From positions 1,838 to 65,837 of the forward strand of contig JAJEGM010000028.1 of assembly GCA_022819825.1 (NCBI GenBank): DNA of 64,000 nucleotides, in the 5' to 3' direction. The translations under genes were made by a program, and so were the position numbers. Below the pieces are notes generated by a model. The model saw nothing but the letters and a program-made list of their open reading frames with translations. It searched no databases and was not told the DNA's origin. Positions within the stretch are counted from its first letter, which is position 1. Each line of letters begins with the position of its first letter. Positions 20,520-58,312 of this stretch are shown here, piece by piece. Source of the stretch: Acidimicrobiia bacterium. GTDB taxonomy: Bacteria > Actinomycetota > Acidimicrobiia > Acidimicrobiales > Bin134.

Positions 20520-22155
20520 CGGGCGGCCCGTAGCCTCCGCCGCCAGGTAATTCGAGGCGCACCACGTCATCGGGGTCGAGGATGACCCGGCTCTGGGTGG
20601 TAACCGGCTCGCCGTTGACTTGGAATGAACCTGCCTCGCCGGGGCCGCCGCCGAATATGCCTTGCGGCGGGTCGGACAGGCGGCTGGTCACCGCATTCAG
20701 CAGCCAAGGACGGGAGGTGTCCACGCTGAACTCGATGGTCTGGCCCTTGCCGCCGGGCTGGGCTCCCGGCCCCTCGGAGCCGGGGCGCAGGGCCTTGCGG
20801 GTGAAGCGCACCGGCGCAGAGGCTTCCACTACCTCGATGGGCACCGCGCTCACTCCGGTGGGATAGGAGCAAGCGTCCAAACCCGGCTTGGATGCCCGGG
20901 CGCCCACCCCTCCGGCGTAGGTGAACATCGCGGTGATGAACGGGGTGCCGTCGTCGTGGTTGCCGCTCACCTGCATGGTCCAGACCGCCCCCGCCCCCTC
21001 GGCCATGGACTCCTCCGGCTTGACCTGGGCCAGGGCCTTGAGCAGGGCGTTCGGCAAGAACATCCCCACCACATGGCGGGCGGTGCCCGGCTGGGGCAGC
21101 ACTGCATTCACGATGGACCCCTCGGGGGCGGCCATCTTGATTGGGGCCAGGCTGCCGTGGTTGTTGGGAATTTCTGGATTCAGCACCGAGCGCACGGTGA
21201 ACGTGGTGTAAGCGTGGGTGTAGTTGCGGACCACGTTGATGCCCCACGGGCTGGCCTCCGACGTGCCGGCGTAGTCCACCATGATCTCCCCAGCATCGGG
21301 ATCCACCCGCAGCGAGCACACGATGTCGATGCGGCTGCCGTCGGCCAAGTCCAGCACCGCGTCGGCCTGGTACTCACCGGCGGGCAGTTCGGCGATGCTG
21401 GCCCGGGTGGCCGCTTCAGACCGGTCGATGATCTCGTCGGCCAACTCCTCGATGTCATCGAGGTCGTAGGCGTCGCACAGAGCGGCCAGCCGCTGGGCAC
21501 CCACCTCCCCCGATGCCATCTGGGCATGCAGGTCGCCGGCCATGTGGTCGGGCTGGCGGACATTGGACAAGATGAATTTCCACACATCCTCGTTGCGCTC
21601 GCCGCGCCTCATGAGCTTGCAGATAGGGATCCACAGGCCCTCTTCAAAGCAGTCCCGGGCCCCCGCCCCGATGCCGTAGCCCCCCACGTCGGTGTGGTGG
21701 ATGGTGGAGCCGAAGTAGGCGATGGGCACGGGGTCGCCCCCGGCAGCCGGGGCGCGCCACACCGGCACCAACACGGTCACGTCCAGCAACTGGCCCGCGG
21801 TGAGATAGGGGTCGTTGGTAACCAACACGTCTCCAGGCTCGAGAGCCTCGGGGGGGAATTCGTCAAGCATGTTGGCCGCCCCGATGGCCAGGGAGTTGAT
21901 GTGTCCCGGCGTGCCGGTAACCGCCTGGGCCACCATGCGGCCCCGCTTGTCGAACACGGCGTTAGCCAGGTCGCCGGCCTCGCGCACGATGGGGCTGAAT
22001 GCGGCCCGCTGGAGCGCCCGAGCCTGCTCGTTCACCACCGAGATGAGCGACTGCCACAGGATTTCCAGTTGAATAGGGTCGTAGGAGGAGGCCTCCTTAG
22101 GACTTGTCTTGATTTGGGTCATAGAACTGCTCTGGTTTCTCGCTGAGATCGTCAT
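20512..22155 (-). CDS. hyuB: hydantoinase B / oxoprolinase family protein
   Basis: ..DPIQLEILWQSLISVVNEQARALQRAAFSPIVREAGDL.. is the canonical HyuB N-terminus. ATG 22155 forms an ATGA overlap with the hyuA stop (ATG 22122 is an alternative). Confidence 0.85.
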   Translation of the reverse strand: MTISARNQSSSMTQIKTSPKEASSYDPIQLEILWQSLISVVNEQARALQRAAFSPIVREAGDLANAVFDKRGRMVAQAVTGTPGHINSLAIGAANMLDEFPPEALEPGDVLVTNDPYLTAGQLLDVTVLVPVWRAPAAGGDPVPIAYFGSTIHHTDVGGYGIGAGARDCFEEGLWIPICKLMRRGERNEDVWKFILSNVRQPDHMAGDLHAQMASGEVGAQRLAALCDAYDLDDIEELADEIIDRSEAATRASIAELPAGEYQADAVLDLADGSRIDIVCSLRVDPDAGEIMVDYAGTSEASPWGINVVRNYTHAYTTFTVRSVLNPEIPNNHGSLAPIKMAAPEGSIVNAVLPQPGTARHVVGMFLPNALLKALAQVKPEESMAEGAGAVWTMQVSGNHDDGTPFITAMFTYAGGVGARASKPGLDACSYPTGVSAVPIEVVEASAPVRFTRKALRPGSEGPGAQPGGKGQTIEFSVDTSRPWLLNAVTSRLSDPPQGIFGGGPGEAGSFQVNGEPVTTQSRVILDPDDVVRLELPGGGGYGPPDG

Positions 22156-38811: not shown

Positions 38812-39311
38812 GCCGAATCCTCGGCTTCCAAATGGTTGGCTACCCAGCGCCCTACCGGGTCGTCGCCCCCGGCCAGATGCCAGGCGTAGTGGGCGTGGAG
38901 GCACTTGACCCCCCGGCGGGTGCCTCCCACCCCAGCCGAGGGACGGTGTCCGGCATAGCCGTCGGGGATGGCAGCGTCCCGCTCGGCGGCGTAGCGGCGG
39001 TGGGCGTCGGCAAGCTCGTCGGGATCGACGGCTGCTTCGGCCCGGCCCACTCCCCCGGCCGACTCCAGCCGGCTCACCCGCAGCACATCATCGGGGCCAA
39101 CCAGCCAGTATCGGGTGGGCATTGGGGTGCCGTCGTCCAAGAAAGGAGCGTTCCGCAGCACCCGGGGGGTGCCGTCATCGGCTCTGACAACTATCTCGCA
39201 GGGACCCCGGGGAGCACGGCCCAGCAGGGCCTCGACTTGCTCGGCGTCGCTTCGGTTCAGCGTCAGCCCTTTTTCTTCTTCCTTCTCTTGAACAGCTTCC
39301 TGATGATCCAC
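38808..39311 (-). CDS. DUF501-domain protein
   Basis: ..FLDDGTPMPTRYWLV.. ..VKCLHAHYAWHLAGGDDPVGRWV.. is the DUF501 signature, and the gene occupies the conserved actinobacterial position upstream of ppx. The ATG 39311 start overlaps the preceding gene by 49 nt, so the start is uncertain. Confidence 0.75.
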   Translation of the reverse strand: MDHQEAVQEKEEEKGLTLNRSDAEQVEALLGRAPRGPCEIVVRADDGTPRVLRNAPFLDDGTPMPTRYWLVGPDDVLRVSRLESAGGVGRAEAAVDPDELADAHRRYAAERDAAIPDGYAGHRPSAGVGGTRRGVKCLHAHYAWHLAGGDDPVGRWVANHLEAEDSA

Positions 39312-39916
39312 AGCACGGCGATGAGCCCGGCGATGGGCCCGAACTTCTTGGCCGCCGGCGGGCCGGCGACATCCAGCAGGTCTACTGCTTCGGGCTCGGG
39401 ACTGGACACGGGCCTAACGCCGGAGTCGTCGGCGGAAGCGTCCGGCTCGGAGGAGGCATCATCGGATGAGGAGTCTGAAAGCATGGTCTCCAGATTATCG
39501 GCAAACTGATCCATGATCTTGGCGCTCACATCGGGGATCAGGTTGCGGCCGATCTGAGCCACCTTGCCGGTGATTTTGAGGTCGGTGGTAACCCCGACTT
39601 TGGTCCGATCGTCACCCAGCGCCTCCACCGTGGCGGTGATTGTTGCGCTGGCATTCCCCTGTCCCCGGGTCTCGCGGCCCTCGGCCAGAATGACCACCTG
39701 CATGGCGTCTTGATTGCGTTCGGTGAACGTGGCCTTCCCCTTGTACTGGGCGTTGACCGGCCCGACCTTGACCTTGACCACGCCTCGGTATTCCTCACCC
39801 TCAATCTCGGTGAGCTGGGCACCGGGCAAACAGGGGGCAATTCGCTCCACATCATTGAATGCGGCCCAAACATCGCTGGCCGAGGCGTTGACCTCGATCT
39901 CGTTGCTCATTTCCAT
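39263..39916 (-). CDS. coxG: CoxG-like SRPBCC protein with acidic linker and C-terminal membrane anchor
   Basis: MEMSNEIEVNASASDVWAAFNDVERIAPCLPGAQL.. ..KITGKVAQIGRNLI.. (CoxG family), then an S/D/P-rich linker, the hydrophobic segment FGPIAGLIAVLWII and the tail RKLFKRRKKKKG. Confidence 0.75.
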   Translation of the reverse strand: MEMSNEIEVNASASDVWAAFNDVERIAPCLPGAQLTEIEGEEYRGVVKVKVGPVNAQYKGKATFTERNQDAMQVVILAEGRETRGQGNASATITATVEALGDDRTKVGVTTDLKITGKVAQIGRNLIPDVSAKIMDQFADNLETMLSDSSSDDASSEPDASADDSGVRPVSSPEPEAVDLLDVAGPPAAKKFGPIAGLIAVLWIIRKLFKRRKKKKG

Positions 39917-39955
39917 GCTTGAAAGTCCTCCACAGTCACATCGATTCCGCACACT

Positions 39956-40513
39956 TCAAGACCATGCTTGCAAGTCCTGAACAGTGTCAAAATCCACCGG
40001 TTCTCCGGCACAGGATACTTCCGTAACCTGCTCGGGCCTCATTTGGATGAGCATTCTGGCCCCCACATCCCCGCTGGTGGGCAGCAGCGGCCAGACCGCC
40101 GCCCCCAGCTTCACCGGGGGGCTGCGGCGCCCCTTATAAACGGCGGTTACCAGATCGCCCTCGACCTCAGCCACCACCCGCCACGACTCAGCCCCCACGA
40201 GGGGCTGGTCGCCCAACCCGATCACCACCGCGTCGTGACCGTCATTCTCGGCGGTGAACACCCCAGCCCGCAGCGAGGTGGCTTGGCCCAGTTCCCAGGA
40301 GTGGTTCTCCACCAGCACCACCCCGTCGGGGATCAGGTCGCGCAACTCCACCGCCCCGGTCACGATGTACACCGCGTCGAGCCCGGCCTCCAGCGCGGCA
40401 TCGAGGGCGTGTTGCACCACGGTCTTGCCCCGAAACGGAGCTCGCAGCTTGTGGGTGTCTCCCCCGAAACGGGTGCCAGCACCCGCGGCCAACACAATGG
40501 CGGCGGTGGTCAT
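39956..40513 (-). CDS. mocA: MobA-like nucleotidyltransferase (molybdenum cofactor cytidylyltransferase-like)
   Basis: MTTAAIVLAAGAGTRFGG.K.. and ..GLGDQP.. motifs of the MocA/CoxC-adjacent NTP-transferase family. Confidence 0.75.
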   Translation of the reverse strand: MTTAAIVLAAGAGTRFGGDTHKLRAPFRGKTVVQHALDAALEAGLDAVYIVTGAVELRDLIPDGVVLVENHSWELGQATSLRAGVFTAENDGHDAVVIGLGDQPLVGAESWRVVAEVEGDLVTAVYKGRRSPPVKLGAAVWPLLPTSGDVGARMLIQMRPEQVTEVSCAGEPVDFDTVQDLQAWS

Positions 40514-54335: not shown

Positions 54336-54358
54336 CCCAAGACTGGAATAATGACCCC

Positions 54359-55000
54359 ATGACTGAGCCAATCACCTTTTACTTCGACCCGCTTTGACCA
54401 TGGTGCTGGCAGACAGCCCGTTGGGTTCGTCAGATCGAAGACACCGGTGAGGTGAGCGTCACCTGGGGTCTGTTCTCGTTGGCCATCGTCAACTTCGACA
54501 AGCCCATGGACGAGTTCGACCCCGACCGGGGCGCGGGGGTGCGCTCGCTGCGCACCGCGGTGAAGGCCCGCGAGGTGGGCGGCAACGACGGCATCGGCGC
54601 CTACTACCAGGCCATCGGCCACCGGGTGTTCGACTTGGTGGAGTCGGTGGACGAGCTCGACACCATCCGGGCCGCCGCGGTGGACGCCGGTTTCGACGCC
54701 AGCCTGGTGGACGACGCTCTGGCCGACGACAGCACCTGGGAAACGCTGAAGTCCGAGCACACCATCTTGTGCGACGAGACCCGCAGCTTCGGCGTGCCCA
54801 CCATCCGCCTCGACGGCGGCCAAGGCCCGGCCCTGTTCGGCCCGGTGATCAGCAACCCGGCCGAGACCACCGAAGAGGCGGTGGAGCTATGGCGCCATGT
54901 GCGCTGGCTAACTGCCTACGACAACTTCGCCGAGCTCAAGCGCGACCGCCTGCCGCCCGATCTGGAGGCCTACAAGCGAAGGTATGGCGACGACGGCTGA
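54359..55000 (+). CDS. DsbA-like / Rv2466c-like thiol oxidoreductase with in-frame TGA (54395-54397) at the first position of the CPWC motif. Candidate selenoprotein (UPWC).
   Basis: From ATG 54359 the frame reads MTEPITFYFDPL-TGA-PWCWQTARWVRQIE..SLAIVN..FGVPTIRLDG..ALFGPVIS..FAELKR. It is collinear with the CPWC mycothiol-dependent reductase family over its whole length. The track only reports the part from GTG 54452. Confidence 0.65.
54412..54431 (+). promoter_or_regulatory. candidate bacterial SECIS hairpin
   Basis: GACAGCCC-GUU-GGGUUCGUC: 8 bp with one bulged C. The apical loop begins with G, 23 nt after the UGA. An alternative fold, CUGGC.GAC/GUU.GUCAG, uses the same region. Confidence 0.35.
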
Positions 55001-55490
55001 CGCTGTCGCCGAATCGACTGCCCCCCAATCCGGGGCGCATCGGCCCCTGTGGCGTCGGCGGGGCGCCCGGTGGTTTGCCGCCGCGGTGGTGGTCGCCCAA
55101 CTCGCGCTGGTGGCCAACGGCTACCGGGATGCGCACAACTACTTCGCCTTCCAGCCGTTCAATGAGTCGAGCACCTACGCGATGGAGCTGGTACGGGTGT
55201 TGGACGACGGCCAGCGAGTGCCGGTGCCCAACGGCCGCTGGGAGGGCTACGACTGGAACGAGCTGATCGATTGGGGGCCGCTGCGGTCCCCCTGGCACCA
55301 GCGCCACGCCTTCTCCGGGATAGACGCGGTGGTGGACTTCTTGGACCACGCCCTGGACTGGATGGCCGACAACACCCCCGGTGACACCGAAACCCGCTAT
55401 TGGGAGGCCACCGTCACCTACTACCGCAACGCCCGCGGCCCCCATGTCACGGTGATCCGCAGCCACGACCGGGAAGTGGGCGACCCATGA
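54984..55490 (+). CDS. single-pass membrane-anchored protein of unknown function
   Basis: 168-aa ORF. RRRGARW followed by FAAAVVVAQLALVANGY (TM), then a soluble domain. It overlaps the upstream gene by 17 nt, and its stop forms an ATGA overlap with the HTTM start. Confidence 0.6.
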   Translation: MATTADAVAESTAPQSGAHRPLWRRRGARWFAAAVVVAQLALVANGYRDAHNYFAFQPFNESSTYAMELVRVLDDGQRVPVPNGRWEGYDWNELIDWGPLRSPWHQRHAFSGIDAVVDFLDHALDWMADNTPGDTETRYWEATVTYYRNARGPHVTVIRSHDREVGDP

Positions 55491-56566
55491 CGGCCACGGT
55501 TTCTTCGGCTTCGGACACCCAATGGCGGGACCAGTTCCGCCGCTGGCTGGACGAGGTGTTCTACGAACCGGCCAGCGTGCGGGGGGCAGCAGTGCTGCGC
55601 ATCGTGCTGGGTCCGTGCGTGATCTGGCACCTGCGGCCGTTTCTGGCCGACGCGCTGGATGGCATCACCTACCACGACCGCTTCCAGCAGCCGTGGTGGG
55701 CGTGGTATCCCAATGCGCCCGAAGGGCTGTACGTAGCGCTGCTGTGGATCGGAGTGGCCGCCGCCGTGCTGATGACCGTGGGCTGGTGGTCGCGCATCGC
55801 CACTGGGTCCGCCTTCGCGGTGGTGGCCTACAACCTCTTCTTGTCGCAGACCCACTTCCACCACAACCGGGCGTTCCTGGTGATCCTTTTGGCCGGGGTG
55901 GCCCTGTGCGACAACGGCCGGGCGCTGTCGCTGGACGCCCTTCGCCGACCTCCGCCCGATGACCGGGCCTTGGTGTGGCCGATATGGCTGCTTCGGTTCG
56001 AGGCTGCCGCCGTCTATTTCGCCTCGGGGTTCTCCAAGCTGATCGACCCTGACTGGGTGGGCGGCCGGGTGCTCCACGACCGCTCTGTCCGCTACCAGAA
56101 CGAGGTGCGCGACGCCATAGGCGACACGCTGGCCGACCCGGTGCTGGAGGTGGTGACTGCTCGGGCGTTCCACTGGGTGCTGTCGCCCGCCGCGGTGGCC
56201 ACCGAGCTGTTCATCGCCTTCGGTCTTTGGTTCCGCCGCACCCGGCTGGTGGCGGTATGGGTGGCGGTGGCCTTCCACGTGGGCATCGAGGTGACCTCCC
56301 ACGTGCAGGTGTTCAGCGTGATCGGCATCGGCGCTTTGGCCCTGTGGGCGGTTCCGTCTACCCGCGACCGCACCCTGGTCACTCCCAGCCGCTGGGTGGG
56401 GTGGCTGGACTGGATGGCCCGGTTCGACATCACCGTGGCGCCAGGGGCATCGTGGTGCATGGTGGATCGCGACGGCACGGTGCTGGAAGGGCGAGAGGCC
56501 CGGCAGTTCGTGCGGACCCGGTTGCCGGCCGCCTTCCTGTTCTCCCGGTTCTGGCGGTACCGGTGA
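55487..56566 (+). CDS. HTTM-domain membrane protein (vitamin K-dependent gamma-carboxylase-like)
   Basis: ..FRRWLDEVFYEPASVRGAAVLRIVLGPCVIWHL.. ..FLSQTHFHHNRAFLVILLAGVAL.. ..FASGFSKL.. are HTTM hallmark blocks. ATG 55487 is chosen (ATGA overlap). Confidence 0.8.
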   Translation: MTATVSSASDTQWRDQFRRWLDEVFYEPASVRGAAVLRIVLGPCVIWHLRPFLADALDGITYHDRFQQPWWAWYPNAPEGLYVALLWIGVAAAVLMTVGWWSRIATGSAFAVVAYNLFLSQTHFHHNRAFLVILLAGVALCDNGRALSLDALRRPPPDDRALVWPIWLLRFEAAAVYFASGFSKLIDPDWVGGRVLHDRSVRYQNEVRDAIGDTLADPVLEVVTARAFHWVLSPAAVATELFIAFGLWFRRTRLVAVWVAVAFHVGIEVTSHVQVFSVIGIGALALWAVPSTRDRTLVTPSRWVGWLDWMARFDITVAPGASWCMVDRDGTVLEGREARQFVRTRLPAAFLFSRFWRYR

Positions 56567-57747
56567 GCGCTCTGACGTCTGTTCGACGGATTTGGTCTTG
56601 TCGAGCCTCGCGTCGGCTCATCGCCTGGGCGGTGGTGTGGGTGTTGCTAGCCGGTCTGCTGCGGACCACGCTGGCCGCACCCGAGGTGTGCCCGCAATAT
56701 TCCCCCGGCGACGGCCAACCAGCCATCGACGCCGGGGCCGACTGGATCGTCCGCACCCAGGAGCCCAGCGGGCGGTACCTGTACGAGTACGACCGGCGCA
56801 CCGAGTCGGCAGTGCCGGGTTACAACCTGGTCCGCCACGCCGGGGGCACCATGTCGCTCTACCAGTTGGCAATCGCGCAGGAGGGCCAAAACCACCAGGT
56901 AGTGGAGGCCGCCGACCGGGGCATGAACTACCTGCTGGAGCGGGCGGTGGACACCGGCAATGGGGGTATGGGGCCGGCGCTGTCGCCCCGAGGGCCGGTG
57001 AAGACGGGGACGGCTTCGCTGACACTGGTGTCGCTGGCCCATCGGCGCATCCTCACCGGCGACCCTCGCTACGACGGCGAGATGCGGGCGCTGGGCCGGT
57101 TCCTGATGGGCCAGCAGCTGCCCGACGGGGGGATGCTCAACTTCTGGGATCCCAAGACAGGCGCACCGGTGCCCGGGGAGCGGTCTCGGTTCGCCACCGG
57201 GGAGGCCGCCTGGGGTCTGGCCCTGATGCACGAGGCTTTCCCCGGCGAGGGCTGGGACGCCCCGGTGTGGGCCATCATGGACTACCTGTCCACCGAGCGC
57301 GACGAGCTGGAAGAGCTGTGGCCCCCGCCATGGCCCGATCAGTGGGCGGCCTACACCCTGGGCGAGATGGCCGAGTGGGGCTTGGAAGACCACCACCTGG
57401 AATACGCCCAGCGCTTGGCCGGGCGATTCGGCCAGATGATCCGCTGGGACGCTCAGCGGGAGGGTGTGGCCGAGCTCTCCCACCTGCCCATGCCCCGCGG
57501 CGGCGGCTACGGGACCATCCTGGAGGGCCTAGGCGCGCTGGAGTGGCTGTGGCTCAACGAGCCCCGGCTCGCCGAAGCTCCGCTACGGGATCGTCTGGAG
57601 TGCGGGGCGGCCCGCCTGGCCGAAGCCCAAGCCACCGACGGCGCTTGGTACTACGACGACCTAACCAGGGTGGACGACCAGCAGCACGCCGTCTCGGGCC
57701 TGTTGCTGGCCGACGTCAGTTTCAACCTCGGAGGAAACAAGCCATGA
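56563..57747 (+). CDS. alpha/alpha-toroid repeat protein (prenyltransferase / squalene-cyclase-like) with N-terminal anchor
   Basis: Three Q-x2,3-(D/S)G(G/A/R) repeats: IVRTQEPSGRY, LMGQQLPDGGM and LAEAQATDGAWYY. N-terminal hydrophobic segment LIAWAVVWVLLAGLL. GTG 56563 forms a GTGA overlap with the HTTM stop. Confidence 0.55.
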   Translation: MSALTSVRRIWSCRASRRLIAWAVVWVLLAGLLRTTLAAPEVCPQYSPGDGQPAIDAGADWIVRTQEPSGRYLYEYDRRTESAVPGYNLVRHAGGTMSLYQLAIAQEGQNHQVVEAADRGMNYLLERAVDTGNGGMGPALSPRGPVKTGTASLTLVSLAHRRILTGDPRYDGEMRALGRFLMGQQLPDGGMLNFWDPKTGAPVPGERSRFATGEAAWGLALMHEAFPGEGWDAPVWAIMDYLSTERDELEELWPPPWPDQWAAYTLGEMAEWGLEDHHLEYAQRLAGRFGQMIRWDAQREGVAELSHLPMPRGGGYGTILEGLGALEWLWLNEPRLAEAPLRDRLECGAARLAEAQATDGAWYYDDLTRVDDQQHAVSGLLLADVSFNLGGNKP

Positions 57748-57760
57748 AGGAAGTGAGACC

Positions 57761-58312
57761 ATGAGTGGGCTCGGACCGGTGATGTTGATGGTGCTGGCCG
57801 CGGCCAACCCGGCCGCAGGCGCACTGAGCCTGGCCTGGCGGCCATCGAACAGGGATCAGTGGCGCCCCCGAGTGGCGCTGGCCGTCGCCGCCGCGGTGGG
57901 CGCGCTATGGGTGATCGCCGCGCTGGCCGACCCCATCCTCGACGGCCTGTCGGTGACGACAGGAACCTGGCGCTTGGCCACCGCGGTGCCCTTCGCAGTG
58001 GCCGGACTCCGCTGGATGTTATGGCCCGCCCGTCCCATCCACGACGAACCGCGAGCCGGTACCCAAGTGGCGCTCATCGCCCTCACCGTGTTGTTCACCC
58101 CCCAACTGGTCGCCGTGGTCCTGGCCACCGCCGCCCACGACGGCACCCTACGCACCATGGCCGGCGTAGTCCTCGCCGCCGCCCTCACCGCCGCCCTCCT
58201 CTGGTTCCGAGCCACCCCCACCCCCCTGCTATCAGTGATCGCCCGCCTCCTGGGCGGCATCGCCATAGTCCTAGCCATAGCCCTAGGAGTAGACGGCACC
58301 CAAACCATCTGA
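57761..58312 (+). CDS. multi-pass membrane protein (weak MarC/UPF0056-like N-terminal NP motif)
   Basis: 183-aa ORF with about 5-6 hydrophobic segments, lying 13 nt after the preceding gene. The family assignment is weak. Confidence 0.55.
   Translation: MSGLGPVMLMVLAAANPAAGALSLAWRPSNRDQWRPRVALAVAAAVGALWVIAALADPILDGLSVTTGTWRLATAVPFAVAGLRWMLWPARPIHDEPRAGTQVALIALTVLFTPQLVAVVLATAAHDGTLRTMAGVVLAAALTAALLWFRATPTPLLSVIARLLGGIAIVLAIALGVDGTQTI

Follow-up and report, generated by a model that had tools for sequence, protein, structure and literature searches.

Rv2466c of Mycobacterium tuberculosis is a mycothiol-dependent reductase and the activator of the prodrug TP053. Among selenoproteins, 'DsbA-like protein' sequences with a UxxC motif (COG2761/PF01323) have been catalogued since the 2005 Sargasso Sea study (PMC1088965), a later survey counted 45 DsbA-like selenoproteins in 41 organisms (Peng et al. 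2016, PMC5029168), and a 2026 review lists a DsbA-like 'form 1' with NIP15863.1 as its representative (PMC13188914). Here we describe an Rv2466c-like gene with an in-frame UGA in place of the codon for the nucleophilic Cys, located at positions 54359-55000 of a 64,000-nt stretch of DNA (hereafter the window) from the metagenome-assembled genome (MAG) of a sponge-associated member of the Acidimicrobiia close to Candidatus Poriferisocius. The initial annotation of the window had proposed that this UGA encodes selenocysteine (Sec). The codons of the orthologues, a downstream hairpin specific to the Sec forms and the contrast with true pseudogenes of the family support this interpretation, and on such comparative sequence evidence the locus is very probably a real selenoprotein gene.

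UGA at the catalytic cysteine of an Rv2466c-like protein

The forward strand at 54359-55000 contains a single frame that starts at ATG 54359, is interrupted once, by an internal TGA at 54395-54397, and runs to the terminal TGA 54998-55000; across the interruption it encodes MTEPITFYFDPL, then the stop, then PWCWQTARWVRQIEDTGEVSVTWGLFSL... With Cys placed at the internal TGA, the product has 213 amino acids and matches the Pfam family PF22234 (Rv2466c-like) with an E-value of 3.2e-27 and 96.3 bits (cutoff 27), covering profile positions 1-180 of 180 and exceeding the gathering threshold, while its match to PF01323 (DSBA) is weaker (44 bits). The Rv2466c crystal structures 4zil, 4nxi and 5xur align with residues 6-200 of the window protein (E ~1e-26), and in these alignments the TGA column is the first Cys of FDPLCPWCW (Cys19 of CPWC). 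The redox motif of the window protein is U-P-W-C, in which position 1 is the UGA codon and the other positions are identical to CPWC. Both the family match and the structure alignments agree with the frame given in the initial annotation, which had placed the TGA at the first Cys of a CPWC motif. They also bear out its remark that a product started at GTG 54452 would be left without an active site, as the truncated form would miss strand β1 and the whole CxxC motif. TGA is not reassigned in this genome segment: it ends 27 of the 52 crude gene calls of the window, several of them as 4-nt overlaps, and is an ordinary stop there, as had been stated before. The protein carries no signal peptide, and a cytoplasmic location is therefore expected.

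The same codon recurs in many related genomes. Several run assemblies and the 616-kb contig JAJDVE010000020.1 (GCA_022826315.1) also contain the truncated 182-aa open reading frame (ORF). In a protein search, every gene call from the close relatives (86-97% identity) was N-terminally truncated to 164-191 aa, and full-length Cys proteins started only at ~73% identity and below. The DNA of each of these close relatives has TGA at the same codon, with EPITFYFDPL before it and PWCWQTARWVRQ after it kept and with synonymous differences around; two more distant sets of homologues, with 65% and 57% identity, share the TGA, and the nearest Cys form has TGT. Family-alignment scans of GTDB species representatives (80 loci) and JGI metagenomes (80 loci) yielded 160 further loci. 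TGA was found in 52 of the 80 GTDB species representatives encoding the protein (Cys in the other 28) and in 7 of the 80 metagenome loci (Cys in ~70). All classified loci together, i.e., these 160, the window and the loci L001-L014, comprise 73 with TGA, including 52 different species-representative genomes, and ~100 with TGC/TGT at the catalytic column; chance recurrence cannot account for the shared TGA. TGA is present in all 38 distinct genes of clade 1 (Poriferisocius) and in all 18 distinct genes of clade 2 (Spongiisocius and relatives). Across the orthologues, the column holds either TGA, which is kept throughout a whole clade, or TGC/TGT, and no recurrent extra stops or frameshifts were found.

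The hosts of the TGA form are sponge-associated Acidimicrobiia, namely Candidatus Poriferisocius ('Sva0996 marine group'), Ca. Spongiisocius and other Acidimicrobiales. Candidatus Poriferisocius is represented by many closed chromosomes of 3.0-4.06 Mb, and the complete chromosomes with the TGA form include NZ_OZ241977.1, OZ242355.1 and OZ220474.1. The Cys form is the only one in relatives from soil, peat, groundwater and saline lakes (Ilumatobacteraceae, Nitriliruptorales, Egibacteraceae, Euzebyaceae and others). In public records, the TGA forms appear solely as truncated calls of 164-197 aa named 'hypothetical protein', e.g., MCY4136410.1 and MCY4162998.1. An error of sequencing or assembly that turned TGC or TGT into TGA has a negligible probability, as the sole point for such an error is that the window is a MAG, and the same codon occurs in independent Illumina MAGs, long-read complete chromosomes, Logan run assemblies and JGI metagenomes.

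The gene is translated on both sides of the UGA. The 38 distinct clade-1 genes, derived from 45 of 46 loci, form a gapless alignment of 642 nt, and these 45 loci have no other stop or indel. In these genes, codons 2-12 upstream of the UGA (11 degenerate codons) have a synonymous diversity of 0.27 and an amino-acid diversity of 0.059, compared with gene-wide values of 0.205 and 0.08. The combination of high synonymous and low amino-acid diversity indicates that this segment is coding sequence under purifying selection and not a 5' untranslated region or part of a dead gene. The codons right after the UGA also vary synonymously (CCA/CCG/CCC, TGC/TGT, ACA/ACG), and in clade 2 the protein is likewise conserved on both sides of the UGA.

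The comparative data effectively refute the reading of the locus as a pseudogene or nonsense allele, in which the gene would be dead or only the truncated GTG 54452 product, without its active site, would be made. Gene callers do give the truncated ORF only, and one assembly (L008) carries an extra TAG. However, the same TGA is kept in at least 52 species down to 55% protein identity, 45 of the 46 clade-1 genes have no other stop or frameshift, and purifying selection acts on the 12 codons that precede the UGA as well as on the 18 that separate it from the GTG. Moreover, the true pseudogenes of the family (L171-173 and L165) look different: in L171-173, a TAG stands in for a non-catalytic residue and the C-terminus is scrambled. 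A dead or truncated gene is accordingly very unlikely. Equally unlikely is a split of the locus into a leader peptide of 12 residues that stops at the UGA and a second ORF further downstream, with the hairpin acting as a regulatory, attenuator-like element. The upstream ORF is indeed short and a stable hairpin comes after it, but the segment from the UGA to the next start has conserved amino acids and synonymous changes, and its PWC and helix α1 match Rv2466c residue for residue. The Cys-form orthologues are continuous ORFs, and no terminator-like site was found.

Disrupted copies of the gene were recorded at several loci. The peat contigs L171 (positions 1525-2037), L172 and L173 (Ga0302180_10003955, Ga0302325_10129123 and Ga0302324_100030563) carry a Cys-form pseudogene that is identical in all three, in which a CAG→TAG change stands five codons after CPWC (CPWCY-stop-TSRW) ahead of the scrambled C-terminus. 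L165:1501-2085 (Ga0187893_10001364) has a stop at the Trp codon of CPWC (HICP-stop-CYQAARW) and is probably a pseudogene or a sequencing error. L008:457-540 (ERZ23495468 scaffold_9851) is a TGA form with an extra GAG→TAG change 13 codons past the UGA; the near-identical L007 and L009 have GAG at this codon, and the extra TAG reflects either a faulty assembly or loss of the gene in this strain.

Conserved upstream motifs independently support ATG 54359 as the start of translation, probably on a leaderless mRNA. The sequence [AG]ATAAT lies exactly 6 nt 5' of this ATG in 29 of the 33 distinct clade-1 upstream sequences (loci among L005-L050), a spacing that fits a leaderless mRNA. In the remaining four variants (L026, L040, L041 and L043), the upstream DNA has been replaced, and a Shine-Dalgarno-like GGGAGAG or AAAGGA precedes the same ATG. 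A generic scan for sigma-70 promoters and terminators found no full promoter and no terminator-like site.

The downstream hairpin and the decoding of the UGA

A stem-loop follows the UGA in the Sec forms and is missing in the Cys forms. Hairpin positions are numbered here with the U of the UGA as 1 (window coordinate = 54394 + n). The hairpin at 54412-54431 reported in the initial annotation exists; its G-first loop (GUU) begins 23 nt past the UGA, with 22 nt in between, and further pairing lengthens the hairpin to 54406-54433. Minimum-free-energy folds of single sequences gave mostly noise (z ~0) and were replaced by clade-wise energies and an analysis of synonymous sites. Three folds are possible in clade 1, namely 18-37 (54412-54431), the extended 12-39 (54406-54433) and the mutually exclusive 2-33 (54396-54427), and their mean energies over 28 distinct clade-1 sequences are −8.1, −9.6 and −11.5 kcal/mol, respectively. 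The same three folds have +4.6, +1.1 and +6.2 kcal/mol in two Cys-type Poriferisocius genes and +1.1, +5.4 and +2.5 kcal/mol in 53 other Cys forms. In the clade-1 alignment, 98.3% of the cells of the hairpin are paired.

Synonymous sites point to the same element. Codons 20-25 (GCC CGT TGG GTT CGT CAG) have a synonymous diversity of 0.02, the lowest of the 197 six-codon windows in the gene, and the codons of the hairpin core are rare in this genome, with CGT (used twice) making up 5.8% of the Arg codons and GTT 8.1% of the Val codons. The invariant block at nt 13-39 matches the footprint of the 12-39 hairpin; the variable sites are only nt 12, which is C or U and pairs with G39 either way, and nt 21, which is unpaired. 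Because the invariant block coincides with its footprint, the 12-39 fold is preferred as the best model of a selenocysteine insertion sequence (SECIS) for clade 1. In the published bSECIS model, bacterial SECIS elements have their apical loop 16-37 nt past the UGA with a G within the first two loop positions, and the clade-1 hairpin conforms to this rule in loop distance and early G.

Clade 2, with the motif DP[TV]-U-PWCYQTFRW, has a bipartite stem-loop in which 18-25 pair with 58-66 and 30-36 with 44-50. This structure is 98.3% paired, and three of its pairs show compensatory changes. Its covariation score was reached by none of 500 shuffles, and in slid controls the pairing dropped to 33-53%. 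Its loop (CG…) begins 34 nt past the UGA. The fold of L013 resembles the clade-2 architecture.

By analogy with known systems, we propose the following mechanism for the window gene. After translation has started at ATG 54359, the stem-loop within the ~40 nt after the UGA would act as a bacterial SECIS and recruit SelB·GTP·Sec-tRNA(Sec), so that Sec13 would be inserted and translation would go on to the stop at 55000. In the protein, the selenolate of U13 would attack a disulfide or an S-thiolated substrate, and C16 would resolve the mixed intermediate, leaving an intramolecular Se-S bond. The enzyme may then be re-reduced by a low-molecular-weight thiol system. The catalytic steps, like the nature of the reductant and of the physiological substrate, are modelled on Rv2466c.

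Several observations weigh against this mechanism. In the clade-1 hairpin, no pair has changed on both sides, hence there is no covariation, because the region is invariant; of the expectation that the hairpin is conserved and covaries, the presence in Sec forms and absence from Cys forms and the covariation in clade 2 were borne out, and covariation in clade 1 was not. The alternative 2-33 fold, which excludes the 12-39 fold, is energetically as good. The hairpins of clades 1 and 2 are unlike in position and shape. Searches of Rfam at gathering and permissive thresholds gave no SECIS match, which is the expected outcome for bacterial SECIS elements. Searches of the window and of 0.99 Mb of flanking DNA from the fetched loci (tblastn with E. 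coli SelA, SelB and SelD; ARAGORN) detected neither selA, selB or selD nor a tRNA-Sec, a weak negative because this covers ~2% of a genome per lineage. No second convincing selenoprotein gene was found in the window by read-through scans based on GC content at third codon positions or in inter-gene gaps and gene extensions. Furthermore, Table S4 of a study of sponge symbionts gives SelD = 1, SelA = 0 and SelB = 0 for bin134 (MPNQ, Sva0996 Acidimicrobiia; PMC5649159). Locus L023, whose TGA gene has 95% identity, comes from this bin. As the bin is ~90% complete, in 224 contigs, and selA usually lies next to selB, the lack of both is likeliest a binning gap; one lost contig would remove the pair.

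Other genomes of this setting do encode the machinery. Most Aplysina symbiont bins contain SelA together with SelB, and sponge-symbiont bins are enriched in both (Slaby et al. 2017, PMC5649159). The other Acidimicrobiia bin of the same table, bin76, has SelA, SelB and SelD. Actinomarina, of the class Acidimicrobiia, has the full Sec machinery with a selB that falls under the KofamScan threshold in 84 of 84 genomes (bioRxiv 10.64898/2026.04.03.716425), so SelB can escape profile-based annotation.

The SelD-only profile of bin134 would suit a decoding of the UGA outside SelA, SelB and SECIS, either by stimulated read-through or by a suppressor tRNA for Cys, Trp or Gly, with the hairpin as a stimulator. 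'Orphan SelD' genomes have been reported in Actinobacteria (PMC5029168), and the absence of Sec machinery from the window and its flanks points the same way. Nevertheless, a UGA at the nucleophilic Cys of a CxxC motif is a textbook Sec site; Trp or Gly at this position would inactivate the enzyme, and a suppressor inserting Cys would offer no advantage over TGC, yet the TGA is kept in at least 52 species. Together with the incompleteness of bin134 and the fact that SelB can be overlooked, this makes such decoding improbable. Quite improbable, too, is the more specific case that Poriferisocius truly lacks SelA and SelB while having SelD, and recodes the UGA by SelB-independent Sec insertion or by a hairpin-stimulated suppressor; if true, it would be a new route of UGA decoding in bacteria. 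A first Sec form of the Rv2466c or mycothiol-type reductase family, with a remodelled SECIS and a Sec→Cys reversion, is much more likely than non-canonical decoding.

Evolution and genomic setting

The sponge-associated Sec forms (clade 1, clade 2 and L013) are monophyletic in a neighbour-joining tree of 113 distinct proteins. It appears from this tree that one ancient Cys→Sec change took place in the ancestor that the Poriferisocius and Spongiisocius groups of sponge-associated Acidimicrobiia share. Separate origins of Sec in clades 1 and 2 were considered and ruled out because the tree joins the sponge Sec forms. The Cys-type genes L014 (ERZ25070844 ctg10133, 2.75 Mb) and L052 (OZ244918.1, 2.93 Mb), from the only Cys-type Poriferisocius genomes, are nested in the Sec clade as sister to the Sec-type L010, and they have lost the hairpin. 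Their genomes measure 2.75-2.93 Mb with 49-50% GC, compared with 3.0-4.06 Mb and 64-66% GC in Sec-type Poriferisocius. The simplest reading of the sequences is that the SECIS diverged after the gain of Sec and that one Sec→Cys reversion, with decay of the hairpin, followed in a Poriferisocius sublineage with low GC and a small genome. This suggests that Sec use was lost during genome reduction in the L014/L052 lineage. The Sec-type L010 and L051 are intermediate in base composition (56% GC).

A further Sec form was found in an unrelated metagenome. L169:549-1200 (Ga0136846_1004638) has the motif FWFDPL-U-PWCFVTSKW, is nested among Cys lineages as an independent Sec form and carries its own hairpin, CCAGCU-GGUCG-AGCUGG, which starts ~33 nt after the UGA. 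The apical loop of E. coli fdhF also reads GGUC.

The reductase gene is the first of a partly conserved cluster whose downstream part spans 54984-58312 (Table 1) and also holds genes for 394-aa and 183-aa proteins without a Pfam match. The downstream cluster is kept in Sec and Cys forms but is variable, and L006 and L007 have no called HTTM gene. The HTTM domain is related to vitamin-K-dependent γ-carboxylase. From the shared neighbourhood, the DsbA-fold reductase and the HTTM protein may form a functional module.

Table 1. Features of the UGA-containing gene and its surroundings, in window positions
Feature	Coordinates	Strand	Description
Extended −10-like element TGGAATAAT	54344..54352	+	Ends 6 nt before ATG 54359
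Full ORF of the predicted selenoprotein	54359..55000	+	213 codons including Sec13, then stop TGA 54998-55000; Rv2466c-like DsbA-fold thiol/selenol oxidoreductase
Twelve codons 5' of the UGA (MTEPITFYFDPL)	54359..54394	+	Translated; strand β1 into the active site
UGA, predicted to be read as selenocysteine (U13)	54395..54397	+	Place of the nucleophilic Cys of CPWC
U-P-W-C redox motif	54395..54406	+	Resolving Cys16 at 54404-54406; basis: alignment to Rv2466c FDPLCPWCW
Predicted SECIS stem-loop	54406..54433	+	11 bp, apical loop GUU 54420-54422 (G26 U27 U28); core 54412-54431
Truncated 182-aa ORF of gene callers	54452..55000	+	Artefact of the UGA taken as stop
168-aa gene	54984..55490	+	Overlaps the stop of the selenoprotein gene by 17 nt; no Pfam match; N-terminal hydrophobic segment
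HTTM-domain membrane protein	55487..56566	+	PF05090, 2.5e-23; downstream also in L001, L005, L010 and L014

Three other regions were recorded. On the reverse strand of the window, ORFs of 185 and 229 aa at 39263-40513 lie in the same frame, separated by TGA and one codon; 39263-39952 and 39956-40513 were considered as one TGA-containing gene and are read as two ordinary adjacent genes; in the second ORF, an internal Met opens a typical SRPBCC-like N-terminus. The region 20571-22151 (1.6 kb, 67% GC) has no ORF that passes the crude coding filters; the high GC at the first codon position of its plus-strand frame hints at a minus-strand gene missed by the filter. On the L010 contig, a DUF3179 (PF11376) gene lies at 599-2002 on the reverse strand, 8 kb from the selenoprotein gene, with a call of 467 aa. 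The 2026 review (PMC13188914) counts DUF3179 among the selenoprotein families (UxxC/T). The L010 copy is presumably a Cys/Thr form because it is called full length.

Comparison with Rv2466c and known DsbA-like selenoproteins

The initial annotation knew of no described Sec form of this family, and this claim holds in part: UPWC DsbA-like selenoproteins have been known since 2005, but their catalogued representative NIP15863.1 belongs to a different family (PF01323). We found no prior description in the literature on Rv2466c and selenocysteine, on selenoproteins of sponge Acidimicrobiia, on Poriferisocius, or on Sva0996 and selenium. An Rv2466c-like family is absent from the main texts of the BSepDB and deep-Sep papers, and NCBIfam has no model for it. 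Many Cys homologues bear the IMG name 'predicted DsbA family dithiol-disulfide isomerase', which we take to be the COG2761 label, and some Rv2466c-type sequences may have been counted under 'DsbA-like (COG2761)' in older metagenome surveys. The novelty is moderate, as the gene adds a family of UxxC thiol-oxidoreductase selenoproteins and no new principle.

The addition of the Rv2466c-like family (PF22234) to the list of thiol-oxidoreductase selenoproteins is well supported. It would mean that Poriferisocius and Spongiisocius (52 species representatives), a dominant group among the symbionts of sponges, have a cytoplasmic redox enzyme that depends on selenium, and it ties selenium to a family used by M. 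tuberculosis for mycothiol-dependent reduction and prodrug activation. Annotation pipelines will go on missing the Sec forms because all public calls are truncated with the loss of the active site and there is no NCBIfam model. The proposed history of the family would also provide a natural experiment that combines one gain of Sec from Cys, the divergence of a SECIS inside a coding region, and a reversion to Cys with decay of the hairpin and genome reduction.

Compared with Rv2466c, the window protein is alike in belonging to PF22234, in its N-terminal FDPL-C/U-PWCW, in the region of the GVPT cis-Pro loop and in the lack of a signal peptide. It differs in having a UGA-encoded residue for the nucleophilic Cys. 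Its host is a sponge symbiont of the Acidimicrobiia and not a mycobacterium, and its gene is clustered with that of an HTTM-domain membrane protein. The predicted SECIS resembles bacterial elements of the E. coli fdhF type in being a stem-loop just 3' of the UGA within the coding sequence; it has no primary-sequence similarity to the fdhF element, and the clade-1 loop has only 3 nt.

The closest selenoprotein analogues are the DsbA-like form-1 proteins. NIP15863.1, whose sequence was taken from the deep-Sep supplement, shares with the window protein the superfamily, the fold class, a UPWC motif within the first 20 residues and Sec for the attacking Cys. Its motif context is FSDYI-U-PWCY, whereas that of the window protein is FYFDPL-U-PWCW. 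NIP15863.1 matches PF01323 with 129 bits and has no match to PF22234, in contrast to the window protein with its 96 bits for PF22234 and 44 bits for PF01323; a DsbA-like member from Desulfosarcina likewise matches PF01323 (100 bits) and not PF22234. BLASTP aligned NIP15863.1 and the window protein only over the N-terminal residues 1-43 (26% identity, E = 4e-5), and full-length homology was not found. The taxa of DsbA-like form 1 are deltaproteobacteria, clostridia and Asgard archaea, whereas the window form occurs in Acidimicrobiia. Judged by its motif and family matches, the window gene would work like the known DsbA-like selenoproteins, but it is a member of another family of the superfamily.

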